Shown here one piece after another: positions 2,112 through 22,783 of a stretch of 32,000 bases of DNA. Both the position numbers and the translations under genes were made by a program. Below the pieces are notes generated by a model. It saw only the letters and a list, made by a program, of their open reading frames with translations, ran no database searches and was not told the origin of the DNA. The stretch comes from Candidatus Iainarchaeum sp. (GTDB taxonomy: Archaea > Iainarchaeota > Iainarchaeia > Iainarchaeales > GCA-2688035): positions 1-32,000 of the forward strand of contig JAQTNI010000003.1 of assembly GCA_028713935.1 (NCBI GenBank). The letters run 5' to 3'. How positions within the stretch are numbered: the stretch's first letter is position 1; the number at the start of each line of letters is the position of its first letter.

Positions 2112-3512
2112 TTAAATAAAGAACGGCACTGCGTTCAGGATTAGCAGTGCAAGCACAAACCAGAAAAAGATTTTGCTGAGAGTTTTTTCCTTTTCTTCTT
2201 TTGAAGCTTTCCAAAAGCCAAGATAGGGCACTATTAGGGCTTTTGCTATTTTGCCGCCATCAAAAGGCTCTAACGGCAGAAAGTTTGCAATTGCAACCAA
2301 AAAGTTTAACAGAAAAAACCAGAACAAAAAGCTATAGATGAAGCTGATTGCAAAAATAAAGTAAACATAGGCCTGTGAAAATTTTGCGCCTGTTTTTAGT
2401 TTGTCTTCAACACTATAACCCTGATAACCCATTTCATCTGGCGTGATTGCAATTGTTTCCGCTGCTGAATTCTCATCTTTTTGTACTGTAAGCTGGTAAG
2501 GGTTTTTTCCAATTTCCTTGATTTTTGCTGACCAGCCATTTGCGGATTCAACTTTTATTCCATTAATTTCTTTTACAATCATTCCCGCTTCAAGCTTTCC
2601 AAAAGCAGGGCTTGGAGTGATTCTTCCGCACAGATTAATGTTCTGGTCAACACTGGAAATTGCCACACTGCCAATGTTATTGTTGTATTCCAAAAAAGAA
2701 AATGTTATTATTGAAGGGAAAACAAAAAACACAAAAAGCCCGGTTATTACTGCACAAAAAAGGTTTGCAGTTGGCCCAGCGGAAAAAACCCTTAATTGGT
2801 CCCTTTCATTTGTATGCTTTAATTGCTCTTCATCAGGCTCTACAAAAGCGCCTATTGGAAGAATTCCAAGCAATAAGAGGCCAGCGCTTTTGATTTTAAT
2901 GCGTGCTTTGCGTGCAAGCGCTCCATGCATTCCTTCATGGACAAGAAGAATAATTAAAAGAGAAATCCAGCCATGCAATGGCACTGTAACAGGGAAATTT
3001 GGCAATGAAACTCCTGGAAGGAGAGGCGCGACTCCTGGGCAGGATTTTTGGCCCGCAAGAGCGCTTGTAATCACAAATTCAGAGTAAGCCGCAAGCATTA
3101 CAACCATGAAGCCGGCAAAACCCATTACTCCAAAGCCAAGTGACATGAAAAAATTGTATTGTTCAATGAAAGGGTTTGAAAGCAATACTGAAAAGCTTAA
3201 ATTGAAAAGAACAAAAAGAATTGCAGTGCTTGCAATAAAAAGAAGAATTCTTGGGATTAACCTGAGTTTTTTTCCAACCAAAAAATCAATTGCAATTGCA
3301 CCAAAGCCAAGCACAAGCCCAATGTCAGCAAAGGCATTCAGGATTTTTTCATGCTTTGAAATTTTGTCAAGCAAAGGCAAAAAACGCGTTGTCTTCACCA
3401 TTGAGCCAATGTAAAAAGTCTGGGCTTTTGCAAATTTTTTCAGCAAAAAAGTTGTGACTACAAAAAAAGCAAGTATTCCAATTATCCAGAGTGCTATTTC
3501 AACGAGTTCCAT
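2112..3512 (-). CDS. Site-2 protease family (M50) membrane metalloprotease with internal PDZ-like segment
   Basis: HExxH in a TM helix (VHEGMHGALARK), distal NFLPLEPFDGGK motif, and multiple hydrophobic helices. Confidence 0.85.
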   Translation of the reverse strand: MELVEIALWIIGILAFFVVTTFLLKKFAKAQTFYIGSMVKTTRFLPLLDKISKHEKILNAFADIGLVLGFGAIAIDFLVGKKLRLIPRILLFIASTAILFVLFNLSFSVLLSNPFIEQYNFFMSLGFGVMGFAGFMVVMLAAYSEFVITSALAGQKSCPGVAPLLPGVSLPNFPVTVPLHGWISLLIILLVHEGMHGALARKARIKIKSAGLLLLGILPIGAFVEPDEEQLKHTNERDQLRVFSAGPTANLFCAVITGLFVFFVFPSIITFSFLEYNNNIGSVAISSVDQNINLCGRITPSPAFGKLEAGMIVKEINGIKVESANGWSAKIKEIGKNPYQLTVQKDENSAAETIAITPDEMGYQGYSVEDKLKTGAKFSQAYVYFIFAISFIYSFLFWFFLLNFLVAIANFLPLEPFDGGKIAKALIVPYLGFWKASKEEKEKTLSKIFFWFVLALLILNAVPFFI

Positions 3513-3528
3513 GCCACCACAAAAAAAG

Positions 3529-3915
3529 TCATTCCTGTTTTTCAGTTAACTTTACCTGAAGGGCTTTTTCCAGTTTTGAAATCAGTTTGTCAGAAGGCTT
3601 TATGCTTTCAGATTCAATCCTGTGCAGCAAGGAAACAGGTTCAAAAATTTTTTTTCCAAGTTCCTCAAAAGTCAGGCCCTGTTTCTGCCTTGCCATTGAA
3701 ATAATTTTTCCAAAACCTTTTTTCAAATCCAAACCCAAATCAAATGCGCCTGCTTTCCTGATTTCCATTTCCTCAAAATCAATTTTTTTTGTTTTTTGGG
3801 GAGGGGCCTCTTCAATTCCAAGGGAAGAGCACTCTTCGCAGGCAAGCATTTCAACGCCTTCAAGCAAAATCTTTTTCAAATTGCCGGAAGGCCTGCCGCA
3901 AACCTCGCAGAGCAT
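3529..3915 (-). CDS. mbf1: Archaeal MBF1-like protein (N-terminal zinc ribbon plus XRE-type HTH)
   Basis: CEVCG...CEEC zinc ribbon, then an HTH segment RQKQGLTFEELGKKIFEPVSLLHRIESE. Lies 16 nt upstream of the S2P gene on the same strand. Confidence 0.8.
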   Translation of the reverse strand: MLCEVCGRPSGNLKKILLEGVEMLACEECSSLGIEEAPPQKTKKIDFEEMEIRKAGAFDLGLDLKKGFGKIISMARQKQGLTFEELGKKIFEPVSLLHRIESESIKPSDKLISKLEKALQVKLTEKQE

Positions 3916-3975
3916 ATATCTTTAAAAAAAAGAAATTCTTAATAAAGAATTGCAATGAAAAGGAACAAGGCTAAT

Positions 3976-4329
3976 TCAATAAAATTCCAGAATATCTCCT
4001 GTTCCCATGTCCTGTTTTTCCACTCCTTCAACAGTAATGGAAACAAGCTTGCCAGCGCCCGCTTCAACAACATTTGCCCTGCGCCTTTCAATGTTCAAAA
4101 CTTTTCCTGTTTTTTCCCCTGCATTAAAAGACAGGCCTGGCTTCAAAACTCCTTCTGAAACAATTCCAACAACAACAATGCCAATTCTTGGAATCTGGTA
4201 AGAACCCCTCACTTCCAGCTTTGCAGTGCCCCTCATTGGGCCATCCCAATTGGAAGTTCCCTGTTTTGAAACAGGCTTTTCCTCGCTTTTTCCGCCAAAA
4301 ATCTTTCCAAACAAACCCACAAAAAACAC
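3976..4329 (-). CDS. Small stand-alone protein resembling translation-GTPase domain II (EF-Tu/EF-1alpha beta-barrel)
   Basis: The pattern IGIVVVGIVSEGVLKPGLSF..GEKTGKVLNIERRRANVVEAGAGKLVSITVEGVEKQDMGTGDIL mirrors the G.V..G.V..G.l..G....k.V.si.....v..A.aG..v.i.l.gv...d...GDil consensus. No G domain is present. Confidence 0.5.
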   Translation of the reverse strand: MFFVGLFGKIFGGKSEEKPVSKQGTSNWDGPMRGTAKLEVRGSYQIPRIGIVVVGIVSEGVLKPGLSFNAGEKTGKVLNIERRRANVVEAGAGKLVSITVEGVEKQDMGTGDILEFY

Positions 4330-4414
4330 CTCTCAACCTAAAATTCATTAAAATAAGTGAAAAGAAAAATAAATAACCTTATCTGAAAAAGGGTTTTTGC
4401 TGCAAAGAAGGCAA

Positions 4415-5818
4415 TTATTTAATAGCTTTAACAATTTTTTTAATATTGCTGAAATCTTTAAATAAATAATCTGGTTTTTCTTTTTTCAGCCTTTCAACTG
4501 TTTCATGGCCAGTCGCTACAGCAATTGACTTTACTCCCGCTTCTTTTGCACAAACAATGTCGCGAATAGTGTCACCTATAATATAAATATCCTCTTTTTT
4601 GAATTCGCGCCCTGTTTCTTGCTTTGCACTTTTCATTGCAATCGGAACCAATTCGCTTCTTTTGCTTGTTGCATCACCAAATGCCCCGACCTTGAAATAT
4701 TTCCAAAGCCCAACATTTTTTAGTTTTGCCTGCGCCTTATCAAAAGTATTTCCTGTAAGCAAGCCAACAACCTGTTTTTCCTCAACCAGCCTCTTAATTA
4801 ACTTTTCAACGCCACGGATTTTTTGCAATTGCACTTTTTGGATTGCTTCTAAAACAATACTTCCAATATCTTCAAGTGCAGGCAAAAAACGCGCGTCTTT
4901 TTCGGGTTCTTTTACTCCCTTGCTCTGAAGATGGTCAATTAAAATGTCCCTGTCAGTTCTTCCTTTCAAAACCACATCGTTTCTGTCTAAGTTAATGCCA
5001 AAATGCTTCTTGGCAACTGCTTTCCAATAATCAAATTCCACAGAACCAATTGGAAGCAAAATACCATCAATATCAAATAAAACCAGTTTCATTGGATTCC
5101 CTTTATCAAGCCTGCTTTTGTCACGCAATCCTTTCATCATTTCTGAAACAGAAACTTTTTTGCTTTTTGAAAGCTTTCCATACATTGACTTTGTTTTCCC
5201 GTATTGAATGCCAAATTTTGCCAGGTCTTTTTTTAATTGTTCAAAAGAGCGGAACCAAATTGCCTTCATTCCAAGCTTTTGCGCTGTTTCAATGCATTTT
5301 TCCTGGTCATCAATAAACAGGCATTCTTCAGGTTTTAACCCAAGCTTTTGAATTGCAATCTCATAAATTTCTTTTTCAGGCTTCAAAATCCCCAATTCAT
5401 GCGATAACACAAGCACTTCAAATGGCTTTAACCAGCCTTTTTTCAGATGGTTTGGAAAATTGACTGGATCTGAATTTGAAATCATTCCAAGCCTGTAATT
5501 TTTTTTCAATTTTTTTACAAGCCCTGCCATTTTTGGGTCTAGTTTCCAGTTGTTTGTCCAGAGCTTTACAAGCTGTTTTTCCTGTTCAATTGAAATCTGC
5601 ACATTAAAAATTCTCCTGAAAAATTCCTGAATAGTAATTTTGCCGCTGTTAAACATTCCATCAACAGTAACCCCTTTTTCCGCTGAAACAATTTTGCTTA
5701 TCCCAAGAACCCTAAAAGCCTTTTTTGTAAAAACAGCAAAACTGCCTTTTAGATAAACACCGCCAGCATCAAACAAAACAGCCTTAATCACCAAACCACC
5801 AAAAGAATTGTTTCTCAT
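4415..5818 (-). CDS. Tandem HAD-superfamily hydrolase fusion (two complete HAD modules)
   Basis: Module 1 has AVLFDAGGV (DxG variant), ISNSD and FIDDQ. Module 2 has LVLFDIDGIL, LLTGNT and IIGDTIRDI. ATG at 5818 is preferred over the upstream start in the track. Confidence 0.75.
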   Translation of the reverse strand: MRNNSFGGLVIKAVLFDAGGVYLKGSFAVFTKKAFRVLGISKIVSAEKGVTVDGMFNSGKITIQEFFRRIFNVQISIEQEKQLVKLWTNNWKLDPKMAGLVKKLKKNYRLGMISNSDPVNFPNHLKKGWLKPFEVLVLSHELGILKPEKEIYEIAIQKLGLKPEECLFIDDQEKCIETAQKLGMKAIWFRSFEQLKKDLAKFGIQYGKTKSMYGKLSKSKKVSVSEMMKGLRDKSRLDKGNPMKLVLFDIDGILLPIGSVEFDYWKAVAKKHFGINLDRNDVVLKGRTDRDILIDHLQSKGVKEPEKDARFLPALEDIGSIVLEAIQKVQLQKIRGVEKLIKRLVEEKQVVGLLTGNTFDKAQAKLKNVGLWKYFKVGAFGDATSKRSELVPIAMKSAKQETGREFKKEDIYIIGDTIRDIVCAKEAGVKSIAVATGHETVERLKKEKPDYLFKDFSNIKKIVKAIK

Positions 5819-5872
5819 GCTTATTAACATTTTACTGAGTTTTTTGCAGGCAAGCAAAAGTTAGGCAGAGTT

Positions 5873-6229
5873 TTAAGTGCTTGCCAGTTGGATATCTAAC
5901 GAAGTATAAAGCGCTTTTAGATAAATCATTTGCTTTTCTTTGATTTTTTCTATTAAGTCGTATTTTTTCAGCAAGTTTGCGTCTCTGCTTATTGCTTCTT
6001 GTTTTCTTTTTAGTTCATAGGCTATTTCGCTTATTGTTTGCCTCTCGGCCTGGTGCTTAATTAGATGCCTGAGAAGTTCAAATCTTTTTGGCGAAAGAAT
6101 TTTGTATAAGTCTTCAGTGGAATCCAAAAAAAGAGTGTGCGTATTTTTTTTTGCTTTTTGTGGATTGCCAAAAACAGCCCTAAGCTCTTTTTTTTTATCC
6201 GCTCCAACCATAATTATCAAATTATCCAT
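5873..6229 (-). CDS. Winged-helix DNA-binding protein, putative antitoxin partner of the upstream gene
   Basis: LSPKRFELLRHLIKHQAERQTISEIAYELKRKQEAISRDANLLKKYDLIE is a wHTH. The N-terminal region ending in FLDSTEDLYKILSPKR resembles COG4190/HVO_A0114-type regulators, from my recollection of that family. Confidence 0.6.
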   Translation of the reverse strand: MDNLIIMVGADKKKELRAVFGNPQKAKKNTHTLFLDSTEDLYKILSPKRFELLRHLIKHQAERQTISEIAYELKRKQEAISRDANLLKKYDLIEKIKEKQMIYLKALYTSLDIQLAST

Positions 6230-6269
6230 TTTTATCCCCTTGAATTTTAAATCAATTGTCTATTAATAT

Positions 6270-6288
6270 TATAACCCCATAGGTTATA
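6270..6288. promoter_or_regulatory. 7-bp inverted repeat TATAACC-n5-GGTTATA between the toxin-like and HTH genes (possible operator)
   Basis: tataaccccataggttata read directly from the sequence. Lies 41 nt upstream of the ATG at 6229. Confidence 0.3.
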
Positions 6289-6316
6289 TAAATAGTTTGT
6301 TGTGTTTTAATGCCCC

Positions 6317-6718
6317 CTATTTTTCCTTGAATTTTGCCAGATATTGCCTCCAATTTTTTTCTATATTGCCAACAAATTCTTGCATTGTATCATAACTCAT
6401 TTTTTTATTCAACTTTTTCTTTTCGTGATGATTGTAGAAAAACTGGTGCACATGCACTTCTTCCCGGGCTGAACAATCGTAACGTACTATTTCCTTTGGC
6501 TTCTCGCCAATTATCAGGCAATAGCTTACTGAAAACTCTTCCAGGTTTTTGCCATCTGAAGTGAAAACAAAGCGAATAAAGACCTGGTTCTTTTTTTCCT
6601 TGTCAAGATACCAACTGTAACTTAGTTGCCTTTCCTTTTCAACCATGCAAAAAACCAGCCATTGATTATTCTCCAACAATGGCGTAGTTTCTTTTAATGG
6701 TTTGTGTTGTTCCGACAA
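6317..6718 (-). CDS. DUF6516/TumE-like protein (putative toxin of a type II TA pair)
   Basis: The core IVRYDCSAREEVHVHQFFYNHHEKKKL ... MSYDTMQEFVGNIEKNW matches my memory of the R-Y-D-n..H.H...... pattern of that family. TTG start. Gene pairing with a wHTH protein. Confidence 0.45.
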   Translation of the reverse strand: MSEQHKPLKETTPLLENNQWLVFCMVEKERQLSYSWYLDKEKKNQVFIRFVFTSDGKNLEEFSVSYCLIIGEKPKEIVRYDCSAREEVHVHQFFYNHHEKKKLNKKMSYDTMQEFVGNIEKNWRQYLAKFKEK

Positions 6719-6924
6719 TCAGCGATTAGCCTTGGCGATTCCGTTTTTGCCTTCACTAGAAAGAATCAGAAGTTATAACCACGCCTAAGCATTGGCACGT
6801 TTATTGCTGTTTCCCTACTCCAGTTATATAGCAACCCAATTTAAACTTTTAGCAGGAGATTGTGTATTGACAAATTGTTGAAGAAATGCCAGAACAAAAA
6901 GGGAAGTGATAAATCATACCGCCA

Positions 6925-7263
6925 TTGGGAAAACTATTGCCAATTACAGTTGGAAGTGCAATCTGTTGGTTTGCTGTTTTGATTTTACTACTTATCTATG
7001 CCTCTGGCGCATTTGAGTTCAAAGTTTTATTGCCTATCGGCTTCCTTTTCTTCTTAGGCATTTTCTTTTGGATTGACGACGACTTGCACAAAAAAACCCA
7101 ACTGCGGGAAAAACCCAGCGTCCACGAAAGGATATTTTATGAAAAAAACAGAAACGAAGCGCTGGGCAGGGCAGAAGTTCAAAAATATATAATCGCTGCT
7201 ATCGCTCTTGGCTTTTTATTATTGACAATCATAGTTTATGCCCCAAAAATTCCGTTCAATTAA
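6925..7263 (+). CDS. Small membrane protein (about 3 TM), function unknown
   Basis: Hydrophobic helices AICWFAVLILLLIYA, LLPIGFLFFLGIFFWI and IIAAIALGFLLLTIIVY. TTG start. First gene of a tightly spaced operon. Confidence 0.5.
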   Translation: MGKLLPITVGSAICWFAVLILLLIYASGAFEFKVLLPIGFLFFLGIFFWIDDDLHKKTQLREKPSVHERIFYEKNRNEALGRAEVQKYIIAAIALGFLLLTIIVYAPKIPFN

Positions 7264-7288
7264 CAAAAAAATTTGTAAGTGATTTTTT

Positions 7289-7588
7289 ATGGGAGTAGGA
7301 ACAAAACAAATACAAGAAATGGAAAAACAAAACAAAATATTGCTTGAAACAAATGCCAAAAACGAGAAACAATGGAGCTTTGAACAATTATTGCTAATGT
7401 ACCTTGCGCTTCTGGCGGCAGTTTTTGGAATTGTTGCAGGATTAGCACAAGCCACATTTACAAAAACCCTTGAATTGTACCCTTCTCTTGTTTTTGTTTT
7501 CTTGGGCGGGTTGGCAATTACAATTATTGTATTGGCAATCGCCTTGAAAAAAATAGCCAAAGAAATAGACAAATTTTTTAAAGTGTGA
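7289..7588 (+). CDS. Small membrane protein (2 TM), function unknown
   Basis: Helices LLLMYLALLAAVFGIVAGLA and LVFVFLGGLAITIIVLAIAL. Starts 25 nt after the previous stop. Confidence 0.5.
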   Translation: MGVGTKQIQEMEKQNKILLETNAKNEKQWSFEQLLLMYLALLAAVFGIVAGLAQATFTKTLELYPSLVFVFLGGLAITIIVLAIALKKIAKEIDKFFKV

Positions 7589-7595
7589 TTTTTGA

Positions 7596-7994
7596 ATGCA
7601 AAAAACTGGAAAAGGCGCAGAAATTGAAATCATAACGCAATGGCTAAAACAAGCAAAAAAACAGTTTCCTCAAAACAAAGGCTGGAAAATAATGTCTTCT
7701 GAATCATACGCAGGGAATATTGTGGGTACAAAGGGTTACCCTGACTTTATGATTTTCAACAAAAAAACAAAAGAACTGGTTTTCATAGAATTAAAAGCCA
7801 AGACGCATGGTTATCATTCCTTTCAGAAACAAACAATAAAAGTGCTGATGACTGCACGTAAAAAGAAAGCAAAACTCATAACTTTTGACTGGAATGAAAA
7901 AAAGAAAAAATATTCCAAATTACATGAGGAAGATGCACTAAAAGTAGAACCAGATGGAAACTACGAACGTGCAGAGAACATTGGTTTTTTGTGA
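7596..7994 (+). CDS. PD-(D/E)XK nuclease of the VRR-NUC / Hjc-like type
   Basis: GYPDFMIF ... ELVFIELKAK ... FQKQ gives the G-x-P-D ... (I/V)-E-x-K ... Q signature. Starts 7 nt after the previous stop. Confidence 0.6.
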   Translation: MQKTGKGAEIEIITQWLKQAKKQFPQNKGWKIMSSESYAGNIVGTKGYPDFMIFNKKTKELVFIELKAKTHGYHSFQKQTIKVLMTARKKKAKLITFDWNEKKKKYSKLHEEDALKVEPDGNYERAENIGFL

Positions 7995-8003
7995 GGAAAA
8001 AAA

Positions 8004-8510
8004 GTGATTGAAATGAAAAACAGCCCTGCAAAACAAAAGAATTTTCTGTTTAGTTATGTTATTGACCATGACGGAGACCCCGATTTTGTAGGCAAAAAAC
8101 TGGTTTTGGGAACACAAAACTGTAAGGCATACATGCGCCCGCTCGTGCATAAAAACGATTGGATTATTGCAACGCTTGGAAAAAAATTTCCCACAGGAAA
8201 AACAAACAGTGACTTTACCAGGGCAAATAAAGATTATTGGCAATATTTGATTTGTGCAATGCAAGCAACAGAGAATCCCAAGCGGGGCAAAATTTATTCA
8301 AACAATTTTTATGTCTTTTTTGCAAAACCCGTCAAACTAAAAAGCGAAAAAAGCAATTTTCTTGCTTTAATCAAAAGGGGGCGAAGGCACAAAAAAATCC
8401 CTCTTGAAACAAAAAAGGTTCAAAAATTTTTGAGCTGGATAAAACACCAAAAACATAGCAGGGGGAAAACTCAACAAGCAAAAACCTGCAATCAAATATG
8501 GGCCCAATAA
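8004..8510 (+). CDS. Hypothetical protein, tentatively Nmad2-like (nucleotide-modification-associated domain 2)
   Basis: The N-terminus FSYVIDHDGDPDFVGKKLVLGTQNCKAYMRPLVHKNDWIIATLG is colinear with my recollection of the Nmad2 pattern Y-V-v..D.GFAPNPF.G.CTLA.CKP.IR.....GDWvvG. Divergent and unverified. Confidence 0.4.
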   Translation: MIEMKNSPAKQKNFLFSYVIDHDGDPDFVGKKLVLGTQNCKAYMRPLVHKNDWIIATLGKKFPTGKTNSDFTRANKDYWQYLICAMQATENPKRGKIYSNNFYVFFAKPVKLKSEKSNFLALIKRGRRHKKIPLETKKVQKFLSWIKHQKHSRGKTQQAKTCNQIWAQ

Positions 8511-8515
8511 AACAG

Positions 8516-9205
8516 CTATTGCTCTGTTGGCAATTTTGTGCCAAATGTTTCTGTAATATACTGTGCAGTCTTTTGTGAAAGGGATTTCAAGCCAGATACT
8601 GCAGTAGCGATAAGCTCAATTGCTTCTTTACCATTAGATAAAATCATTTGCTTTTCATTGTTATTTCGAGGGAGACATAATTTATTTTTCATTAAAAATT
8701 CAATCCAAGAGTTTGCCAAATCAACTGTATCTTGAATCAGATATAACGCTTTTTTTAAATCAAAGGAGGATTTGTTATCTATTTTATTGTCAAGGACTCT
8801 GGCAAAATAATCTGCATCAAGATTGGGAATTTTAATGGCAGGTACTGACTGGAATGAAAGAGTTTGCAAGTAGGAATCTGTAATGCTGGGACGTACCGAT
8901 TCCCCAAAAACAGTTAGTATCCCCCCAGAGACATAATCCAGTTTTACCAATAACAGTTGTAAATATTGTTCTTGTTTCTTTCTATGGTTAAAAATTTTGA
9001 ACAGCAAATCTATTCGCCATAGTCCAACAGCAAAAACTATTGCAAAAATAGCCAGCAAACCTTGTGCTTTGTTAACTTCCCCTAAGAAAATTTGTTCCTT
9101 GTTAAAAAAAACTGCCAACAAATAAAACAAAGTCGGGAAAGACATCATTATAAAAATTGGAATTAATTCTTTTTTTTGCTGTGCAATAAAATCAACATAA
9201 GACAT
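8516..9205 (-). CDS. Membrane-anchored protein (2 N-terminal TM plus about 150-aa soluble domain), function unknown
   Basis: TM helices IPIFIMMSFPTLFYLLAVFF and LLAIFAIVFAVGLW. No motif recognised in the C-terminal domain. Confidence 0.5.
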   Translation of the reverse strand: MSYVDFIAQQKKELIPIFIMMSFPTLFYLLAVFFNKEQIFLGEVNKAQGLLAIFAIVFAVGLWRIDLLFKIFNHRKKQEQYLQLLLVKLDYVSGGILTVFGESVRPSITDSYLQTLSFQSVPAIKIPNLDADYFARVLDNKIDNKSSFDLKKALYLIQDTVDLANSWIEFLMKNKLCLPRNNNEKQMILSNGKEAIELIATAVSGLKSLSQKTAQYITETFGTKLPTEQ

Positions 9206-9236
9206 GCTCTGTGCCCCCTTGTAATAAAAGTTCGGC

Positions 9237-10031
9237 TTAAAATATTTTTGAATTTGGTTTTTTTCTTTGAAGCATTCCAGCCATGCTTTTTATTCTTAAT
9301 AAATCATTGTTGCTGAAATCGGTTGTTCCTTGACTATAAAGCTTTTCCGTTATTACTTCTTTTTTTTCTGTTTCTGTTTTTGCCAGTTGATAATCTTCTG
9401 AACTAAGAAGCTCTTTTGCAATGCCTTCAAAGAGTTTTGTTTTTTCTTGCAACTTCGCAAGATTTATTTTTGCGATAGCCCCTTTGATTGTTGGCTCTTC
9501 CTTAAGTCTTTCAAAATAAGTGCGAATGGAATGCCAACGAGAGTGCTCTGAATCAATTGCAGCAATTTTTTTAAGCTTTGGAATTTTTTCAAAAACAAAA
9601 AATTGGAAAGGCGCTTTATCCAAAAAAAATGTATCCTCTATTCCTTGGTTTTTTTCCAAGAACTCTGATAAAACAGTAAGCAAGCTTTCTTTTTGGATGC
9701 CTGCTTTTTCCAAATCCTGTTCAATTGTCAAGTCGGAAAATAATTCGCTCGCATCTTCTGATTCATGCAGTTGTTTCAACTTTGCAAGCTTTTCATCGGA
9801 AACTATCTGTTCTTCAAAACCAAAATACGTTTGGCTCTCTTTGTCAAAAACAATTTTGTTGGTTTTAACAGGAACTTCTTCCCCATTTTCATCTTCAATA
9901 GTACTGGGAAAAGAAAAAAAGTATTCTTTATTTTCAGTTTTTTTAACAAGCTTTTCAAAATCCAATTTTTCTTCTAACCAAATTGTTTCGCGCATTAATT
10001 TTTCGCTGGGAATTATAGGCCTAAAATCCAT
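9237..10031 (-). CDS. Acidic soluble protein, function unknown
   Basis: 264-aa ORF rich in E/K/D with no recognisable motif. Lies 31 nt upstream of 8516-9205 on the same strand. Confidence 0.5.
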   Translation of the reverse strand: MDFRPIIPSEKLMRETIWLEEKLDFEKLVKKTENKEYFFSFPSTIEDENGEEVPVKTNKIVFDKESQTYFGFEEQIVSDEKLAKLKQLHESEDASELFSDLTIEQDLEKAGIQKESLLTVLSEFLEKNQGIEDTFFLDKAPFQFFVFEKIPKLKKIAAIDSEHSRWHSIRTYFERLKEEPTIKGAIAKINLAKLQEKTKLFEGIAKELLSSEDYQLAKTETEKKEVITEKLYSQGTTDFSNNDLLRIKSMAGMLQRKKPNSKIF

Positions 10032-10251
10032 TGTTTCTTACCTTAATAACTATCCCTACTGAGGTTTTTAAATGATTTTTGAGTAGGTTTCCGCTATTCT
10101 TTTTTGGTTTTTTCAATAAAAACCGCTTTAAAGCTAACTTTTAAACTGTAAACAGTTGCTTTTAAAAAGAAGGCTTTTATATTGGGAAACACTTGTTATT
10201 TTAAAAAAACAGCAGAAGGAAGTATTATTTTATAACGAGGGTGATTTTGGT

Positions 10252-10410
10252 ATGGCTAAACCAATTAGAGCAACTCCAACGCTTATTGGTGAAGAGGCAA
10301 TTCGCTTTTTGGATAAAATGAGGAGAACGGATTCTGAGAACAGGCTAAGCCCGTCAGACAAAATTTTGGTCGAACTAATGCATAAGAACGAAAAATTGTT
10401 CAGGGTTTAA
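10252..10410 (+). CDS. Small (52 aa) hypothetical protein
   Basis: ATG at 10252 preceded by GAGGGTGAT (SD-like) 8 nt upstream. Sequence is MAKPIRATPTLIGEEAIRFLDKMRRTDSENRLSPSDKILVELMHKNEKLFRV. Its 3' end overlaps the convergent GNAT gene by 11 nt. Confidence 0.4.
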   Translation: MAKPIRATPTLIGEEAIRFLDKMRRTDSENRLSPSDKILVELMHKNEKLFRV

Positions 10411-10999
10411 TTTTCTCCTCTTCTTTTATTATATTTACCAAATTTTTGTACATGTGAACCACATTGCTTTTTTCTTTGGTTTTCAAAATTTCAAAACCAT
10501 TCTTTTTGTAAAATCTTTCAGGCTTTAAGCGCTCTGGGATTATCTCATCATTTTTTGCATCAACTGTAATAAACCTGCAAGCTGCAATCCTATGTATTTT
10601 CACTGCACGGTCTACTGCAAAAGCAATCATTTTTGTTCCAATGCCCTTCCTGCAAAAAGATTTTTGAACTCCCATCCGGCCTATTTTTAAGGCGGGCAAT
10701 GACTTGTAATTAATGCCACGCCTAATCATTTCATCTTTTTGAACCTTGTCCAAATTAATCGCATCAGCACAAATAGTAATGTAGCCAAGAATTTGGTGGT
10801 ATTCGCGAGACATCCACAAAAAAGTCCTGTTCACGCCTTCCTTTTCCTGCTTTAACGCATCTTCCTTAAGAAACGCTTCAATTTCCTTAATTTCGGATTC
10901 AAACCCGCTAATAAAAACACTTGAGGAGTCCCCCAACTCAACAATTTCAATATCCTCTCCAGGATACGGAATTTTATCTTGCTCAATTGAATCTTGCAT
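10400..10999 (-). CDS. GNAT family N-acetyltransferase, TacT/KacT-toxin-like
   Basis: Acetyl-CoA binding segment LPALKIGRMGVQKSFCRKGIGTKMIAFAVDRA, C-terminal FYKKNGFE, and an N-terminal FISGFESEIKEIEAFLKEDALKQEKEGVNRTFL reminiscent of TacT-type toxins. ATG at 10999. Confidence 0.7.
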   Translation of the reverse strand: MQDSIEQDKIPYPGEDIEIVELGDSSSVFISGFESEIKEIEAFLKEDALKQEKEGVNRTFLWMSREYHQILGYITICADAINLDKVQKDEMIRRGINYKSLPALKIGRMGVQKSFCRKGIGTKMIAFAVDRAVKIHRIAACRFITVDAKNDEIIPERLKPERFYKKNGFEILKTKEKSNVVHMYKNLVNIIKEEEKIKP

Positions 11000-11151
11000 G
11001 CACAAATCCTATATTAAAGTATTTAAAAATCCTGCGACCTTTCTTGTCATGGCACTAGAACTTGTTGTTCCCACATTATCTTCCCTTCACAGCAATTGTT
11101 TCTTTTGGCAACAATCATTTTGCAAGCAATAAAAAAATTAGAAAATTTTAG

Positions 11152-11226
11152 TGCCCTCACTGGGATTTGAACCCAGGTCATCAGCTTGAAAGGCTGAGGT
11201 CCTTAACCGGTCTAGACCATGAGGGC
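11152..11226 (-). tRNA. tRNA-Glu (anticodon UUC)
   Basis: Reverse complement folds as GCCCTCA TG GTCT AGACCGGTTAA GGAC C TCAGC CTTTCAA GCTGA TGAC CTGGG TTCAAAT CCCAG TGAGGGC A. It is a full 75-nt cloverleaf with no encoded CCA. Confidence 0.9.
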
Positions 11227-11388
11227 TGCTTTGTTGTTTTTCAATGCTTTTTTTGCTTCAAAATGGTTTTTGTCCTATATTTAAAAACTGTTGCGATTTC
11301 AATAATTAGTGGACAATCCAACAGATTGTTTTGTGAAATAATTAAATAACTTGTTTTTGAGAATTATTTTAAAACAATGGGTTTTTTT

Positions 11389-11562
11389 ATGGCGCGCTTT
11401 GAAGAGGCAGACAAAAGGCTTTTCCTGAATGTCTGGATTTGCATGAAATGCAATGCAAAAAATCGGTCAGGGACGGGAAAACCGAGAAAATGCAGGAAAT
11501 GCGGAAGCAGCAGGTTCAGGTTAAAGCACAAGGTAAAGAAAAGCGCTTCAAAAGGAAAGTAA
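11389..11562 (+). CDS. rpl40e: Ribosomal protein eL40 (L40e)
   Basis: [48 protein letters not shown] carries a C-x2-C ... C-x2-C zinc ribbon and the conserved MARF start. Confidence 0.85.
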
Positions 11563-11609
11563 AAAGCAAAAATTATCCTTAAAAACCATTTTGAACTACT
11601 TTTTATTGC

Positions 11610-12440
11610 ATGCAAATAAAAGCTTTTTTTGAATTAATCAGGCCATTGAACTGCCTAATGGCTGCTTTTGGAGTTTTTGTAGGATATTTCATTGCGTTTT
11701 CAGGTGCAGGAATTGTTTTTTCAGAAACACAATTGATAATTGCAATGTTAGCTGCTTTTTTTGTTTGCGCTGCAGGCCAAACAATAAACGATGTTTTTGA
11801 TTCTGAAATAGACGCGAGAATAAGGCCAAAAAAGCCGATTCCAAGCAAAAGAATTACAAAAGACAGCGCTTTCTGGTATTCAATAGGGCTTTTTGCAATT
11901 GGGAACATTTTAGCGCTTTTCTTGATGCCAGCATCAATAGTAATTTCAATCAGCTTCACAGTGCTATTGATTGTTTATTCTGCAAAAATGCAGAAAACAA
12001 AATTCCTTGGAAACTGGATAGTGGGATTGGGAACTGCTTTTACACTTGTTTTTGGAGCAACAATAATTGGAAATTACAACATTGTCTTGTTTTTGGCTGC
12101 GGCTGCATTGCTTGCAAATGTTGCAAGGGAAATAATCAAGGACACAGAAGACATTGATGCGGATAAAGGATTAAAGGTTTCATTGCCAATGGTTGCGGGC
12201 AAGCAGTTTGCAAAGGCATTTGTTTTTGCGCTTTACATTGTTGCAATTATCCTGCCCTTGTTTGTTTTTTTTGCATTAAAATTTGGGAATATTCTTTTTT
12301 TGGTTTTTGCAATTGTTTCAGCAGCAATCTTTTTGTATTCGGGAAAAATGTTTTTTGATGGAAAAAATGACAAGGCACAGCTTTTTTCAAAAATAGGCAT
12401 GCTCATTGCATTAATTGGTTTTTTTGCAGGGGCTTTTTGA
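11610..12440 (+). CDS. UbiA-family prenyltransferase, probable digeranylgeranylglyceryl phosphate synthase
   Basis: NDVFDSEIDARIRPKKPIPS (NDxxDxxxD) plus a second Asp-rich segment KDTEDIDADKG. About 8 TM helices. Confidence 0.8.
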   Translation: MQIKAFFELIRPLNCLMAAFGVFVGYFIAFSGAGIVFSETQLIIAMLAAFFVCAAGQTINDVFDSEIDARIRPKKPIPSKRITKDSAFWYSIGLFAIGNILALFLMPASIVISISFTVLLIVYSAKMQKTKFLGNWIVGLGTAFTLVFGATIIGNYNIVLFLAAAALLANVAREIIKDTEDIDADKGLKVSLPMVAGKQFAKAFVFALYIVAIILPLFVFFALKFGNILFLVFAIVSAAIFLYSGKMFFDGKNDKAQLFSKIGMLIALIGFFAGAF

Positions 12441-13357
12441 TGCGCGAAGTATTGTTAATGAAAATAATTGCCCTGCTGAAAGAAAAAGGGTTTTTGGTTG
12501 AAAGCTTTTTGCATGCGCATTCCTGCTTTGATCTGGCAGGGAAGGGCCATGGCTTGTTTTTTTTGGTAAAAGTTTTGAATAACATTGATGCTTTGCGGGA
12601 AGAACAGGCTTTGGAGCTGAAAAAGCTTTCCTCGCTTTTTGCGGCAATTCCAATGGTTGTTGGAGAAAAAAGCAAGGCTTTTTCTCTGAAGGAAAATTCT
12701 GTTTATGAAAGATATGGCATTAATGTCCTGAGCTTCAGGGGTTTTTCGGAATTGTTAGAGGAAAACCTGCCTAGCATTAGGGTTTTCAAGGGAAAAGAAA
12801 TTGTTGAGCTTGACCCTGAAAAATTAAGGCAGAGAAGAAAAGAAATGGGCTTTACTCTGGAAGAAATTGCGCAAAAAATTGATTCAACAGTTGAATCTGT
12901 GCACAGGTATGAAAAAGGCGCAAATGTTTCTCTTGGAAAAGCAGAGGCATTGGAAGATTTGCTTGGAACAAGCCTTATTAAAAAAATTGATTTGTTAAAA
13001 GGGGAAAAACAGGAAAAAAATGTTTTTGACAGTGACATTGAGGATGAATGCCTTGGGAAAATTCAGGGCCTTGGAGTTGAATTGTCTGTTTTCAAGCATG
13101 CTCCTTTCAGGGCAAGCGTAAAAAAAGAAACTTTGATAATTGGAAAGGGAAATACTAAAATCGAAATAAGGAAAAAGGCTGTTGAGCTTATTCATGCAAA
13201 AAATGTTTTTGGCTCAAGCCCTTTGATTCTTGCAAAAGAATCAAGCCAGAAGGCAGTCGGGAATGTTCCTGTAATTGAGGAAGAAGAGCTTGAAAGCATG
13301 AGCAGGTTTAATGAGCTGCGGGAACTGATAAGGGAAAGGTCGCGGAAAAATGCGTGA
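12440..13357 (+). CDS. Archaeal HTH (XRE-type) transcriptional regulator, COG1395-like
   Basis: The central HTH is RKEMGFTLEEIAQKIDSTVESVHRYEKG. An N-terminal domain has the SCFDLAGK motif. The ATG overlaps the preceding TGA (ATGA). Confidence 0.65.
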   Translation: MREVLLMKIIALLKEKGFLVESFLHAHSCFDLAGKGHGLFFLVKVLNNIDALREEQALELKKLSSLFAAIPMVVGEKSKAFSLKENSVYERYGINVLSFRGFSELLEENLPSIRVFKGKEIVELDPEKLRQRRKEMGFTLEEIAQKIDSTVESVHRYEKGANVSLGKAEALEDLLGTSLIKKIDLLKGEKQEKNVFDSDIEDECLGKIQGLGVELSVFKHAPFRASVKKETLIIGKGNTKIEIRKKAVELIHAKNVFGSSPLILAKESSQKAVGNVPVIEEEELESMSRFNELRELIRERSRKNA

Positions 13358-13994
13358 AAACAATTTTTCTGAAAAAAGAAAAAGTCTTGTTCAAGGCATG
13401 GTTAGCGAGGGAGCATTGAAAAGCAGGGAAATTGAAAGGGCTTTTTTGTCTGTGAAAAGGGAAATTTTTTTTCCGGAAAGCCTGGGAAAGTTTGCTTATG
13501 AAGACAATGCTTTTCCAATAGGCAGGGGGCAGACAATTAGCCAGCCAAGCACAATTGCAGTTATGCTTGAAATGCTTGATTTGCACAGGGGAATGAAAGT
13601 ACTTGAAATTGGTGCTGGAAGCGCTTATGTGCTTGCATTGCTTTCAAAAATTGTGGGCCTTGAAGGAAAGGTTTTTGGAATAGAAATATTGCCGGAATTA
13701 AAGGCGCTTGCGGAAAAAAATTTGAAGTCAGCAAAATGCGGGAACATTGAATTGCTGCTTGGCAATGGCTGTGAAGGCTGGCCTGAAAAAAGTCCTTTTG
13801 ACAGGATTCTTATAAGCGCTGCCTGTTCTGAAATTCCGAAAGCGCTTGAAAGCCAGTTAAGGGAAAACGGAAAAATTGTTGTGCCTCTTGGAGAAAAATT
13901 TTCCCAGGAAATTGTTTTGATGCAAAAGCAAAAAGGGTTTTTGGAAGAAAAAGAAAGAAAATGCTGCTTTGTCTTTGTGCCGCTGCAATGTTGA
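13350..13994 (+). CDS. pcm: Protein-L-isoaspartate O-methyltransferase
   Basis: GQTISQPSTIAVMLEMLDL and the SAM-binding segment VLEIGAGSAYVLALL. Confidence 0.85.
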   Translation: MRENNFSEKRKSLVQGMVSEGALKSREIERAFLSVKREIFFPESLGKFAYEDNAFPIGRGQTISQPSTIAVMLEMLDLHRGMKVLEIGAGSAYVLALLSKIVGLEGKVFGIEILPELKALAEKNLKSAKCGNIELLLGNGCEGWPEKSPFDRILISAACSEIPKALESQLRENGKIVVPLGEKFSQEIVLMQKQKGFLEEKERKCCFVFVPLQC

Positions 13995-14438
13995 TTACTT
14001 TTTTGCAATTTCCTTTTTTATGCCATCAATGCAAACCCAAATTAGCTGAAAATAATTATCATACCTGCGCAGGGAAAAAAGCGCCTTTTCAGCTGCATTG
14101 TGATATGCCTCATAATCCCTATGTTCCAGGGCAATAAGTTGTTCCCTCATTTTCCCAATTCTTTCACGTGCAACGGCAATATCAGTTTTTATTGCTTTTA
14201 TTGCTTCTGGAATTGTTTTCATGTTGCCTATCCCGATTTTGTGGTTAACCAGCTTTAATGCAAATTTGTCAAAATCTGCTTTGCCAGTGAATTTTTTATT
14301 TCCGGCTTCTTTTTCAAATTCGCCCAGATAACGCCTGCCAGAAAAAAGCCTTCTCCGCAGCCATTCATGGTAGCTTTTTCCGATTGTCAATTGCACTAAC
14401 CTTTTGGTATTGATGATTGGTCTTTTTTTTGGCCGCAT
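13995..14438 (-). CDS. Hypothetical basic protein translationally coupled to fen1
   Basis: The ORF starts at ATG 14438, or at TTG 14444 which abuts the fen1 stop at 14445-14447. No motif recognised. Confidence 0.5.
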   Translation of the reverse strand: MRPKKRPIINTKRLVQLTIGKSYHEWLRRRLFSGRRYLGEFEKEAGNKKFTGKADFDKFALKLVNHKIGIGNMKTIPEAIKAIKTDIAVARERIGKMREQLIALEHRDYEAYHNAAEKALFSLRRYDNYFQLIWVCIDGIKKEIAKK

Positions 14439-14444
14439 AATCAA

Positions 14445-15470
14445 TCATATCCAGGAACTGAGCCTGCTTTGCTTTGCGCTGAAATCAACTCTTTCCACTA
14501 TTTTGTTTAAGGCGTTTTCAACGCGTTCCCTGCTGAAATCGCGCTCGTCGCACAAAAAAGACATTATTTTTTCTTTTTGCATTGGCTTGAATTCAATTTT
14601 GAAGTCTTCTGAAAACTTTGGATGCAAAAAAATTTCCTCTATTCCCCTGTAATCAAAATCAGGCTCGTGCTTTGTTTCTTTTATGATTTCTTCAAAAGAA
14701 GAAAATTTTTTTACTAACTGCAAAGCTGTTTTTGGGCCAATTTTTGGGAATTTTTTGTTAAAATCGGTTCCAACAAGAATGCCTATCCAGACAAGCTTTT
14801 TCCTGTCAATGCCGAGCAATGATAAATTTTTTTCAAGCTCAATCAGTTCAGGCTTAATGTCATAATGATAATTTTTTCCAGGCACTTTTCTTTTTCCGGA
14901 AACAGTTACATTCCTGAACAGGCGTTTTGCTCCAAAGAGGAGAGAATCAAAATCCTGGGAAACACAGCCATAAAGAGTGCCATTGTCAACCATTTGTGAA
15001 GCCTGTGCTTCCCCATCGTTTATGGCTTGCACAACTGGCAAACCCATTAATTCAACAAGAGTTTTTGCCTCTTCAACCATTTCAGGAGTTAATCTTGTTG
15101 CCTGCATTGCAAATTTTCTTGCTTCCTCTGTTTCGCCTTTTTCTTTTGCCTCTTTGAATTTTTTTTCTGCTGCGGTCCGTATTTCATTTCTTGCTTTTGA
15201 AGTTTCTTTTTTGAGTTCAATTGGCTTTCCGTCAAAAACAAAAACAGGCAAGGCACCTGCTTCAAGCAGATTGATTGTCCTGTAAAGCAGTCCTGTTAAG
15301 TGAGAAGTAATCCTTCCCTTTGAATCCATCAAAGGAGTTCCGTCTGCCCCTCTTATAATTGAAAGAAACTGGTAAAGCACATTGAAAGAATCAATTCCAA
15401 TGCGCCTGCCATTCAAAAAAGAAAAATCTATTTCCTGCTTTTCAAGGATTTCCCCAATCTGCGTGCCCAT
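14445..15470 (-). CDS. fen: Flap endonuclease 1
   Basis: MGTQIGEIL...GIDSFNVLYQFLS...GRITSHLTGLLYRTINLLEAGALPVFVFDGKP, and a C-terminal PIP-like KQSRLSSWI. Confidence 0.9.
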   Translation of the reverse strand: MGTQIGEILEKQEIDFSFLNGRRIGIDSFNVLYQFLSIIRGADGTPLMDSKGRITSHLTGLLYRTINLLEAGALPVFVFDGKPIELKKETSKARNEIRTAAEKKFKEAKEKGETEEARKFAMQATRLTPEMVEEAKTLVELMGLPVVQAINDGEAQASQMVDNGTLYGCVSQDFDSLLFGAKRLFRNVTVSGKRKVPGKNYHYDIKPELIELEKNLSLLGIDRKKLVWIGILVGTDFNKKFPKIGPKTALQLVKKFSSFEEIIKETKHEPDFDYRGIEEIFLHPKFSEDFKIEFKPMQKEKIMSFLCDERDFSRERVENALNKIVERVDFSAKQSRLSSWI

Positions 15471-15533
15471 AAAACCAATCAAAAAATAAAGGCGGAAAAG
15501 GTATTTAAAAAGAATTTACACAAAATAAATCGC

Positions 15534-16379
15534 ATGACAGAAAAAGTGACCATTATTATTCCTGCTTATAATGAAGCACTTTACCTGCCAAAAATGTTGC
15601 AATCAGTATTGCGATTGAAGTCTCGGTTCCCACGATTTCAAAAGATGAATCCACTGGTTCACTATCTGATTGACGATGTGATTGTCGTGGATGACGGAAG
15701 CACGGATAATACAGCTAGAATAGCAGTCCAAAATGGGGCTACGCTTGTTTCTCTGGAAAAAAATTGTGGAAAAGCTTTTGCAGTCTATGCCGGTTTTAGG
15801 CGCGCCCGCGAGAATGGTTCTACTATTGTTGTCACGCTGGATGCCGACCTTAAACCAGTTACAAAAAAACAATTGGACAAACTGGTGCTGCCAGTTGCTA
15901 AAAAAGAATGCAAAATGACAGTTGGCCTACTTACTGCAGATCTTGCTGATTTGACAGGTCAACGCGCCATTCGCATGAGCGCTTTAGAACCGCTTTTTAG
16001 TCGCAATAGAAAATGGAGAATATATTTTGGAATTCGCAATGGGAGAATGGTACGTCGAGCAGGGTTTGGATTGGAAGTTGCACTTAATGAACTCATTGGC
16101 CGCATTGGCCCTTATTTTGGAACAGTTTCACCCCACAAGAACGTTCGAGCGGTTCAAACAGATTTCGAAACTCAAAGGAAGGCATACCAAAAGAATATTG
16201 TGGGGAAACCCGAATTGGATAATATGCTCGAACAAAACTTTGACATAAATCGGTACAGCAAGGTTTGGAACCGACGATATGATATGGCTCGCAAGCGACG
16301 AGAATTTCGTGCGAGCAACAAAGCTCAACACGCACGAGCACTGCACAACAGGCATAACAAACAGGCAGTTTTACGGTAA
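15534..16379 (+). CDS. Family 2 glycosyltransferase (glucosyl-3-phosphoglycerate-synthase-like)
   Basis: IIIPAYNE, VVDDGSTDNT and TLDADL motifs, with a basic C-terminal tail. Arg codon usage is atypical for this window (see findings). Confidence 0.8.
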   Translation: MTEKVTIIIPAYNEALYLPKMLQSVLRLKSRFPRFQKMNPLVHYLIDDVIVVDDGSTDNTARIAVQNGATLVSLEKNCGKAFAVYAGFRRARENGSTIVVTLDADLKPVTKKQLDKLVLPVAKKECKMTVGLLTADLADLTGQRAIRMSALEPLFSRNRKWRIYFGIRNGRMVRRAGFGLEVALNELIGRIGPYFGTVSPHKNVRAVQTDFETQRKAYQKNIVGKPELDNMLEQNFDINRYSKVWNRRYDMARKRREFRASNKAQHARALHNRHNKQAVLR

Positions 16380-16494
16380 AACTAGTGCGCGACTTGTTTC
16401 CATGCTAAAGCGTGGTTTGCTATCGCAGATTTATCGCGCTGGATTTAACAATATCCTTATTAATGAATTAAATCTAATTTTATCTGGTTTTTTT

Positions 16495-17106
16495 ATGGAA
16501 GAGAAGGGAAAGAAGAACAGGAAGGCCTGGAAGAAGTTTGGGTTTCCAGAGGTTTATCTGGAAGGGTTGAAAGAAGAGAAAAAAGAGCTTCTTAAAATGG
16601 CTGAAATAAGCATCTGGATAGATGTTTATGATGACTTGTTCTCGGATTTTGACCCAAGGCCTTACTCGCAGAGGGCATTGTCTGACGATTTTTTGAGGGA
16701 AGCAAAAAAAGCAAGCGAAGACAAGAGCACAGGCACAATAGAACTAAGGTTTTTAGTGCCTGCAGAACAAAGAAATTTTGCAGAAGAAAAACTAATCAAA
16801 AAAAGGCTTTTAACACATTTTCAGAAACACGCCTCACTTTTGGGAAAAGCAATAGCAAATCATAGAAAAAAAGGCATAATACTGGCAGGGCTGGGTTTTT
16901 CCTTAATGGTGCTGGCAGCATACATAGCTGCAAATGACCTGAAAGACATTCTGCAAAGCATACTAATGGTTTTTTTAGAACCCTCAGGATGGTTCATAAC
17001 CTGGGTGGGATTAGAAAAAATAGTTTACACTGCAGGGCAAAAAAAAGCGGATTTTGAGTTTTACAAGAGAATGGCAAAAAGCAGGATAATCTTCACATCC
17101 TATTAA
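16495..17106 (+). CDS. Hypothetical protein with two C-terminal TM helices
   Basis: ATG at 16495. Contains DVYDDLFSDFDPRPYSQRALSDDFL and the helices GIILAGLGFSLMVLAAYIAA and ILMVFLEPSGWFITWVGL. The longer track ORF from 16279 overlaps the GT2 gene and is unlikely. Confidence 0.5.
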   Translation: MEEKGKKNRKAWKKFGFPEVYLEGLKEEKKELLKMAEISIWIDVYDDLFSDFDPRPYSQRALSDDFLREAKKASEDKSTGTIELRFLVPAEQRNFAEEKLIKKRLLTHFQKHASLLGKAIANHRKKGIILAGLGFSLMVLAAYIAANDLKDILQSILMVFLEPSGWFITWVGLEKIVYTAGQKKADFEFYKRMAKSRIIFTSY

Positions 17107-17211
17107 AAACAAGCAAAAAAACAGAGGTTATGCAAAAAAGATAACAAAAGTTCTCTTTTTTATATCAAAATAATGCAAATGTTTTTATAGAAGATTAGAC
17201 ACCATATATTC

Positions 17212-17375
17212 TATTGTAGAAATCTCTGATTTCTATAATCCAAAAGAACTTAGTCTGGTGAGCCTATCCCAATTCTTGGCCTAAGTTCAACCAACTCTCT
17301 TGTGGAGGTATCCTTCGGGATGCCTTCATCTGATTTCACAAAACCCAATTGAAAGGCAAAAAAAGCTCTTTTTTT
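17212..17375 (+). ncRNA. Candidate structured small RNA (three hairpins plus T7 tract), class unknown
   Basis: Hairpin 17213-17239 has an 11-bp stem. Stem 17246-17253 pairs with 17281-17288 (GAACTTAG/CTAAGTTC) and encloses CCAA-TTC-TTGG. Hairpin 17304-17327 has a 10-bp stem with a UUCG tetraloop. A T7 run lies at 17369-17375. The G-U pairs fit only the plus strand. TATA-like TTTTATAT and TTTTATAG lie upstream. Confidence 0.3.
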
Positions 17376-17806: not shown

Positions 17807-17814
17807 ATAATTTG

Positions 17815-22778: not shown

Positions 22779-22783
22779 AAAAA

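Follow-up and report, generated by a model that had tools for sequence, protein, structure and literature searches.

Four closely spaced, co-directional genes at positions 6925-8510 of contig JAQTNI010000003.1, from a metagenome-assembled genome of the DPANN archaeon Candidatus Iainarchaeum, raise the question of whether they form a conserved functional system or a set of genes that were acquired separately. The whole stretch of DNA analysed, positions 1-32,000 of that contig, is called the window here. An initial annotation had described the four products as two small membrane proteins, a nuclease and an Nmad2-like protein, and had proposed that together they could be a small defence or abortive-infection cassette or the remnant of a virus. 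We find this combination of genes nowhere else among the loci sampled, and consider it moderately probable that genes 1-4 are a lineage-specific mosaic of independently acquired accessory genes in one transcription unit and not a conserved system. The mosaic would sit in a low-GC, flexible stretch of the chromosome next to a tRNA-Glu gene, and its two recognisable proteins, those of genes 3 and 4, would each act on their own. We favour this reading because the four genes have no conserved association, the stretch is lower in GC and contains singleton genes and phage-type GNAT and helix-turn-helix (HTH) neighbours, and housekeeping genes flank it.

Organization of the four-gene array

The array and the intergenic region ahead of it are laid out as follows.

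Divergent intergenic region: 6719-6924, presumed from its sequence to hold the promoter(s) of the array and of the DUF7718 gene
Gene 1: 6925-7263, plus strand, 112 amino acids (aa), TTG start, NCBI PHD95_00795
Gene 2: 7289-7588, plus strand, 99 aa
Gene 3: 7596-7994, plus strand, 132 aa
Gene 4: 8004 or 8013 to 8510, plus strand, 168 aa from GTG 8004 or 165 aa from ATG 8013, NCBI PHD95_00810

The four plus-strand open reading frames (ORFs) are present as first described, with gaps of 25, 7 and 9 nucleotides (nt), the last of which becomes 18 nt with the gene 4 start at ATG 8013. Complementary to the 3' terminus of archaeal 16S rRNA, the word GTGAT is found at just four plus-strand positions between 6700 and 8600, namely 6906, 7279, 7585 and 8004, and its first base lies 19, 10, 11 and 9 nt ahead of the start codons of genes 1, 2, 3 and 4, respectively. 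Because of the position of the last copy, gene 4 most likely begins at ATG 8013, the start that NCBI also gives. When scored against host codon usage, all four ORFs give 0.23-0.53 bits per codon in the annotated frame and about zero or lower in the remaining five frames. This frame-specific host codon usage, the GTGAT at each start and the purifying selection on gene 3 (see below) show that all four are real genes. Their tight spacing and the Shine-Dalgarno-like motif common to all of them make co-transcription plausible. The divergent intergenic region holds, in addition to the first GTGAT (6906), the A/T-rich TATA-like words TTATATA (6824-6830) and TTTAAA (6840-6845); a scan for promoters and terminators gave only background-level signals, its bacterial sigma-70 model not being applicable to archaea.

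Absence of the four-gene combination elsewhere

The cassette reading fails because, within the limits of the sampling, these genes do not co-occur outside this genome. Searches by tblastn with genes 1-3 and all six of their window neighbours found nothing in the eight loci elsewhere that carry a gene 4 relative, and no relatives of genes 1, 2 or 4 were found near the two other gene 3 loci. The exhaustive remote-homology search covered gene 4 only. Among the defence models of PADLOC-DB 2.0 the best E values were 0.016 (PDC-M47B, gene 3) and 0.12 (PycTM, gene 2), neither a meaningful match, and the neighbouring genes gave only generic HTH matches. The proposal of a defence or abortive-infection cassette thus finds no support in this analysis.

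Gene 3, a probable PD-(D/E)XK nuclease apparently exchanged as a single gene

Only two relatives of gene 3 were detected in very large databases, on the contigs L003 and L015, and a word-indexed homology search returned the query itself and one close homologue. The closest homologue is 89% identical in amino acid sequence and is found on L003, a 5-kb JGI contig, where genes for a lipoprotein, for Zn-ribbon and YidD-like proteins and for an unrelated protein of 184 aa lie nearby. At the DNA level the two contigs share one block.

Gene-sized DNA homology block: window 7585-8009, plus strand, and L003 1181-1611, 88% identical over 432 bp (blastn, alignment and tblastx)

The block consists of gene 3 and its ribosome-binding site and has a AAAGTGATT motif at both edges, and the rest of L003 has no blastn or tblastx match to the window. 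This suggests a gene-sized exchange by recombination at ribosome-binding-site microhomologies. Synonymous divergence (dS) between the two copies is 0.44 and the ratio of nonsynonymous to synonymous divergence (dN/dS) is 0.13; these values indicate that gene 3 has a function and that it was either transferred or kept on its own, as one gene. The third copy, on L015, is partial and 55% identical, and has a different, unrelated gene downstream. Gene 3 may circulate as a one-gene module among such mobile-element-like contexts; it has no match among GenBank phages, PLSDB plasmids or IMG/VR.

We note that L003 has a GC content of 35% and shares the GTGAT ribosome-binding motif with the window. Its positions 2223-4986 further encode a TraC-like/PrgI protein, an RHH_12 protein, a VirB6-like polytopic membrane protein and a TrbC/type IV secretion system (T4SS) pilin protein, and by their sequences these genes may come from a DPANN-type organism and specify its apparatus for conjugation or for DNA import (Ced/Ted-like).

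The gene 3 product is a basic, stand-alone protein of 132 aa in which the PD-(D/E)XK signature first read by eye is borne out by the motif E9/E11...G-Y-P-D50...E65-L-K67...Q77-K-Q79 and by converging family matches, all of them below threshold. P49, D50, E65, K67, Q77 and Q79 are invariant in the alignment of the three homologues. Matches to PDDEXK_3 (PF13366; 21.6 bits, cutoff 22.0) and to VRR_NUC (PF08774; 20.9 bits, E = 3.8e-4, residues 44-87 only, cutoff 23.8) cover this motif region, as do the matches to HSDR_N_2 and SduA_C of Pfam, to GxxExxY (TIGR04256; 19.1 bits, cutoff 35) and to PRK14674 of NCBIfam (named "hypothetical protein", and which we take to be YraN/UPF0102), likewise below their cutoffs; the NCBI product name is "GxxExxY protein". 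Over that region a PHROG Holliday-junction resolvase family is matched as well, with E = 6.8e-4, and the Pfam model for Hjc gave nothing at E <= 1. Because the weak matches converge on the motif, all are sub-threshold and Hjc is not matched, we place gene 3 probably in the PD-(D/E)XK superfamily and in no particular family of it; the domain labels first given to genes 3 and 4 are largely correct, with VRR-NUC matched near threshold here and the Hjc model not at all. Its protein would be a minimal PD-(D/E)XK endonuclease of the Hjc, VRR-NUC or YraN type, most likely a Mg2+-dependent DNA nuclease and perhaps a structure-specific one, that by analogy probably functions in the manner of Hjc and VRR-NUC, which are small dimeric nucleases. 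Searches of PDB sequences with gene 3 and its family profile gave nothing meaningful, and the AlphaFold2 model, built from a two-sequence alignment, is too poor to judge the fold (pLDDT 49), its Foldseek matches being noise.

All three homologues end in the same C-terminal tail, E[ND]IG[FI]L, preceded by an acidic linker that varies (window 7971-7991, where it reads E-N-I-G-F-L; L003 1569-1589; L015 241-261). To our knowledge this tail has not been described for the VRR-NUC, PDDEXK_3/GxxExxY, YraN or Hjc families. From its sequence the tail might serve as a short peptide that binds a partner, though not as a canonical PCNA-interacting protein (PIP) box.

Gene 4, a short Nmad2 protein

The initial annotation had given the N-terminus of gene 4 as colinear with Nmad2, and this was right, since the protein passes the Pfam threshold for this domain (PF18753; 31.2-31.3 bits, E = 2e-7, cutoff 26.1). 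The Nmad2 name reflects founding members tied to DNA base modification through gene neighbourhood, and we know of no Nmad2 protein with a known biochemical function; a literature search on Nmad2 found no account of the domain. An exhaustive HMMER scan of 1.84 billion representative proteins at E <= 1e-3 found 22 members of the gene 4 family. All are stand-alone proteins, mostly 125-194 aa long, except for one weak 571-aa match that was left out of the family alignment. Nineteen of the 21 aligned relatives also match Nmad2 (best E = 3.6e-15). Gene 4 itself covers positions 4-67 of the 200 in the model and its relatives cover 1-67 and 133-195; because the central part of the model is unmatched in all of them, the family is a shortened Nmad2 variant that lacks about the central third of the model. 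It is apparently largely archaeal or DPANN, and its conserved motifs are SYVIDHxGDP, LGxxxC, MRPxVxxGDWVIATLGK, YLVYAMxVT and F..W.

The gene 4 protein is strongly basic (34 K+R against 10 D+E). Its AlphaFold2 model, built from nine sequences, is of moderate quality, with pLDDT 64.5 and pTM 0.66, and the best Foldseek match in PDB has E = 0.16 and probability 0.57, with TM-scores of 0.44-0.49, which is below significance. Nearly all of the top matches are PUA-like modified-base readers, with EVE domains (2p5d, 2gbs, 1zce), YTH domains (YTHDF1/2, Mmi1, CPSF30), ASCH domains (2e5o, 8alz, 5y7d, 6kir) and the McrB N-terminal domain (6n0s), and a few ASCH and EVE entries are also among the matches in a viral structure library. 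On this modelling, gene 4 may have a PUA-like (EVE/YTH/ASCH-like) beta-barrel, and it would most likely bind or act on modified nucleotides or nucleic acid. A PDB sequence search with gene 4 and its family profile gave nothing relevant, a word-indexed homology search returned the query alone, and no relatives were found in IMG/VR, GenBank phages or PLSDB plasmids; a scan of GTDB genomes with the family motif found only the Micrarchaeota locus already known.

Eight contexts of gene 4 relatives in other genomes were read, six of them with long flanks and two on short contigs.

L004 (Micrarchaeota): gene 4 relative followed by REase_II/NmeDI_C, N6-methyltransferase (N6-MTase) and S subunit genes
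L005: gene 4 relative divergent from an NYN nuclease gene
L007: gene 4 relative preceded by an HTH gene, with a type I restriction-modification (RM) system about 1 kb off
L009, 4789-6507 (also L010): gene 4 homologue 24 nt downstream of a DDE_Tnp_1 transposase gene, same strand
L011: gene 4 relative between proteasome-alpha and Pelota genes
L012, 3369-4697 (also L013): gene 4 homologue and two uncharacterized genes between NusA and S12-S7, with gene 4 on the opposite strand
L016 and L017: short contigs with neighbours of no recognised function

Three of the six long-flank contexts (L004, L007 and L009) have RM genes no more than a few kb away, and none surround the relatives in L005, L011 and L012; the window's own accessory stretch has no base-modification or restriction gene around gene 4. 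Gene 4 is thus solitary and patchily distributed, enriched near RM genes and without a fixed partner. The adjacency in L004 could hint at a recurrent nuclease-Nmad2 partnership in which the nucleases are interchangeable.

Several of these loci have features of their own. The surroundings of the L009 homologue include an MmeI-like RM enzyme and a prim-pol element, and its position suggests that it may be a passenger gene of an insertion sequence (IS) element. The L012 insert is a small accessory insertion in an otherwise conserved archaeal core cluster. A 137-aa gene upstream of the L004 Nmad2 gene looked by eye like a possible GIY-YIG nuclease, a reading dropped because neither Pfam nor PDB supports it. 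PDB sequence searches with three neighbours of gene 4 relatives gave nothing meaningful.

Genes 1 and 2, small membrane proteins

By hydropathy gene 1 has three transmembrane-like segments (7-25, 32-50 and 88-106) with a charged loop of about 37 aa, and gene 2 has two (34-52 and 67-85) after a hydrophilic N-terminus of about 30 aa, in agreement with their first description as multi-spanning membrane proteins. Their in-frame codon scores are +0.23 and +0.53 bits per codon, respectively. Each forms a singleton protein cluster, family-profile searches (Pfam, PADLOC, PHROG, NCBIfam) gave noise-level matches only, and no relative of either was found among IMG/VR viral contigs. We take both to be small membrane proteins that lack detected relatives and an assigned role. 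No evidence was found for the labels holin-like and sensor/effector-like that had been attached to them; the former was rejected because there is no endolysin, no viral hallmark gene or other viral context for a lysis arrangement, and no meaningful PHROG match to either protein.

Gene 1 is annotated at NCBI, yet it is uncalled on two Logan assemblies of the same population. Its GTGAT (6906) lies 19 nt ahead of the annotated TTG, as against 9-11 nt for genes 2-4, and the in-frame codons ATC (6913) and ATA (6916), directly after a TAA stop, are at the normal distance from it. Because of this unusual spacing and these two codons, the true start of gene 1 is uncertain from the sequence.

The accessory stretch and its surroundings

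Low-GC accessory stretch: 5873-11005, with an HAD hydrolase gene at one side and tRNA-Glu at the other
tRNA-Glu: 11151-11226, minus strand, 2.6 kb from the array

The stretch contains, besides genes 1-4, an HVO_A0114-type HTH gene and a DUF7718 gene (both on the minus strand), two uncharacterized minus-strand genes (for a membrane-anchored protein of 229 aa and an acidic one of 264 aa), an 84-aa ORF and a GNAT acetyltransferase gene. GC content is 0.33-0.355 in the 1-kb bins of 5001-12000 and 0.37-0.43 in most bins of 12001-32000; the bins outside 5001-12000 range from 0.32 to 0.44, a few of them being as low as 0.32-0.36. All genes of the stretch are of accessory type or have no assigned function, and every uncharacterized one is a singleton cluster. 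Phage protein families are matched by two neighbours, the GNAT gene (an acetyltransferase PHROG, E = 3e-32) and the HTH gene (phrog_11214, E = 4e-11). The array had been said to sit between toxin-type genes close to a tRNA; the tRNA-Glu is indeed nearby, and the neighbours prove to be the DUF7718 and HTH genes on one side and the GNAT gene on the other, none of which is an established toxin. No integrase, replication, capsid, terminase, virion, lysis or secretion gene is present between 5873 and 11005, and searches for att-like direct repeats of tRNA-Glu and for inverted repeats around the stretch or gene 3 gave only short A/T-rich matches of chance quality. The other origin first suggested, a virus remnant, thus gains no support either.

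The 84-aa ORF (10156-10410, plus strand) convergently overlaps the 3' end of the GNAT gene (10400-11005, minus strand) by 11 nt, a layout unlike that of a GNAT-toxin/antitoxin operon. It is recorded from Logan assemblies only, with no NCBI entry, and has a weak match to phrog_16712 (E = 4.7e-4).

Housekeeping genes flank the accessory stretch at both ends, and the rest of the window is mostly ordinary chromosome, with genes for FtsZ, an M50 protease, an HAD hydrolase, UbiA, PCMT, FEN1, ECF transporter components, a tyrosyl-/tryptophanyl-tRNA synthetase (TyrRS/TrpRS)-type enzyme, spermidine synthase, GAR synthetase and IMP dehydrogenase (IMPDH). The ORF at 25305-26390 (plus strand) joins S-adenosylmethionine decarboxylase and spermidine synthase domains in one fused polyamine-synthesis enzyme. 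The ORF at 29513-31999 (minus strand), which continues past the window end, has Hint, Intein_splicing and LAGLIDADG_3 matches between two IMPDH halves, which suggests that an intein carrying a LAGLIDADG homing-endonuclease domain splits the IMP dehydrogenase gene.

Origin and possible function of the array

Several points weigh against the reading of genes 1-4 as a mosaic. Gaps of 7 and 9-18 nt in a single orientation have the look of a functional operon, and in L004 a gene 4 homologue directly adjoins a restriction-type nuclease. Sampling is thin, with two gene 3 contexts elsewhere (one partial) and eight of gene 4, and genes 1-3 lay outside the exhaustive remote search, so that distant relatives of the cassette may have been missed. 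The likeness of the gene 4 fold to PUA-like readers is not statistically significant, and with no integrase or att site in the stretch its mobile origin is putative. The strongest alternative, which we nevertheless hold to be unlikely, is that genes 3 and 4, either alone or together with the membrane proteins, are a minimal nuclease-plus-reader module resembling modification-dependent (type IV) restriction or a restriction/modification pair, in which the Nmad2 protein would recognise or alter a modified base and direct or restrain the nuclease, as a swappable partner of different nucleases. The short gap between the two genes, the Shine-Dalgarno motif common to both and the strongly basic nature of both proteins fit such a module, and the best structural neighbours of the gene 4 model (EVE, YTH, ASCH and McrB N-terminal domains) serve that role in type IV systems; the RM genes near half of the long-flank relatives, and the REase_II gene that follows the one in L004, point the same way. 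Yet no gene 3 relative lies near any gene 4 relative, or vice versa, and gene 3 moves as a single-gene block. The gene 4 relatives of L011 and L012 are solitary insertions in housekeeping clusters without an adjacent nuclease, the structural similarity falls below significance and PADLOC gave no matches. It is distinctly unlikely that the short stand-alone Nmad2 proteins of DPANN and other archaea are, as a group, an unrecognised class of PUA-like modified-base readers, or small modified-base enzymes, teamed with interchangeable restriction-type nucleases; if this were true, gene 4 would have the mobile gene 3 as its partner, in a minimal restriction module of two proteins that senses modification, and the partner in a Micrarchaeota genome would be a REase_II.

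A lineage-specific four-gene defence or abortive-infection system, in which the membrane proteins would serve as effectors or sensors and nucleic-acid sensing would fall to the nuclease and the Nmad2 protein, is very unlikely. The operon-like layout and the setting in an accessory stretch with toxin-antitoxin-like neighbours and a tRNA nearby are in its favour. A recent survey reports that few known defence systems occur in DPANN archaea, which seem to prefer compact ones (PMC12988326); systems not yet described are therefore to be expected in this group. Against it, the four genes do not co-occur at the other loci sampled, no relative of gene 1 or gene 2 was detected, PADLOC and PHROG offer no support, and a system confined to one genome is indistinguishable from a chance juxtaposition. 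We give as little credence to a decayed integrated virus, plasmid or conjugative element of which the four genes would be one module of membrane or exclusion proteins and DNA-processing proteins. The TraC-like, VirB6-like and TrbC-pilin genes that adjoin the close relative of gene 3 would agree with such an origin, as would the phage-family matches of the GNAT and HTH neighbours and the low GC of a stretch next to a tRNA, but that stretch has no integrase, replication, capsid, terminase or secretion genes and no att-like tRNA-Glu repeat, genes 1-4 are unmatched in IMG/VR and genes 3 and 4 in GenBank phages and PLSDB, and gene 3 alone is held in common with L003. That gene 3 might be the core Holliday-junction resolvase Hjc of the organism is effectively refuted: its small size, E...D...E-x-K layout and weak PHROG resolvase match agree with Hjc, but it has no match to the Pfam model, its 88% DNA-identical relative lies in a wholly different, accessory and mobile-element-like context, and two relatives in very large databases are not what a core archaeal gene would have.

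Relationship to known systems

Gene 3 resembles VRR-NUC and Hjc nucleases in its size of about 130 aa, its acidic N-terminal helix and its P-D, E-x-K and conserved Q residues, but it differs from these and from the PDDEXK_3/GxxExxY and YraN/UPF0102 families in its scores below their cutoffs, its E[ND]IG[FI]L tail and its accessory, mobile-element-like contexts. Several gene 4 relatives are, like the founding members of Nmad2, near DNA-modification or restriction genes, whereas gene 4 itself is short, stand-alone and rare and has no base-modification genes beside it in the window. The pair recalls type IV restriction (EVE, YTH-like McrB N-domain, ASCH and SRA readers) in placing a putative PUA-like basic protein beside a PD-(D/E)XK nuclease; in those systems, however, the reader is usually fused to the nuclease or strictly co-inherited with it, whereas here the pairing is found only in this genome and the reader fold is a weak prediction. 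The accessory stretch is similar to tRNA-adjacent and defence islands in its lower GC, singleton accessory genes, toxin-antitoxin-like neighbours and tRNA at the edge, but it lacks an integrase, a direct repeat of the 3' end of the tRNA and any defence system that could be recognised.

As a system, then, the four genes carry little weight, since the combination is unique to one genome and tight spacing does not by itself make a defence cassette. Genes 3 and 4 are divergent additions to known domain families, and the proposed four-gene system is unsupported. Gene 3 is a clean case of a single gene moving among unrelated DPANN-type contexts, with the edges of the exchange at ribosome-binding-site motifs. 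The rare, short, stand-alone Nmad2 family is now delimited to 22 representatives, largely archaeal and recurring by RM genes, and a weak structural likeness to the EVE/YTH/ASCH reader fold gives a first lead. Because no function has been assigned to Nmad2, such a small and tractable member of the family is a reasonable target for structure determination and binding studies.

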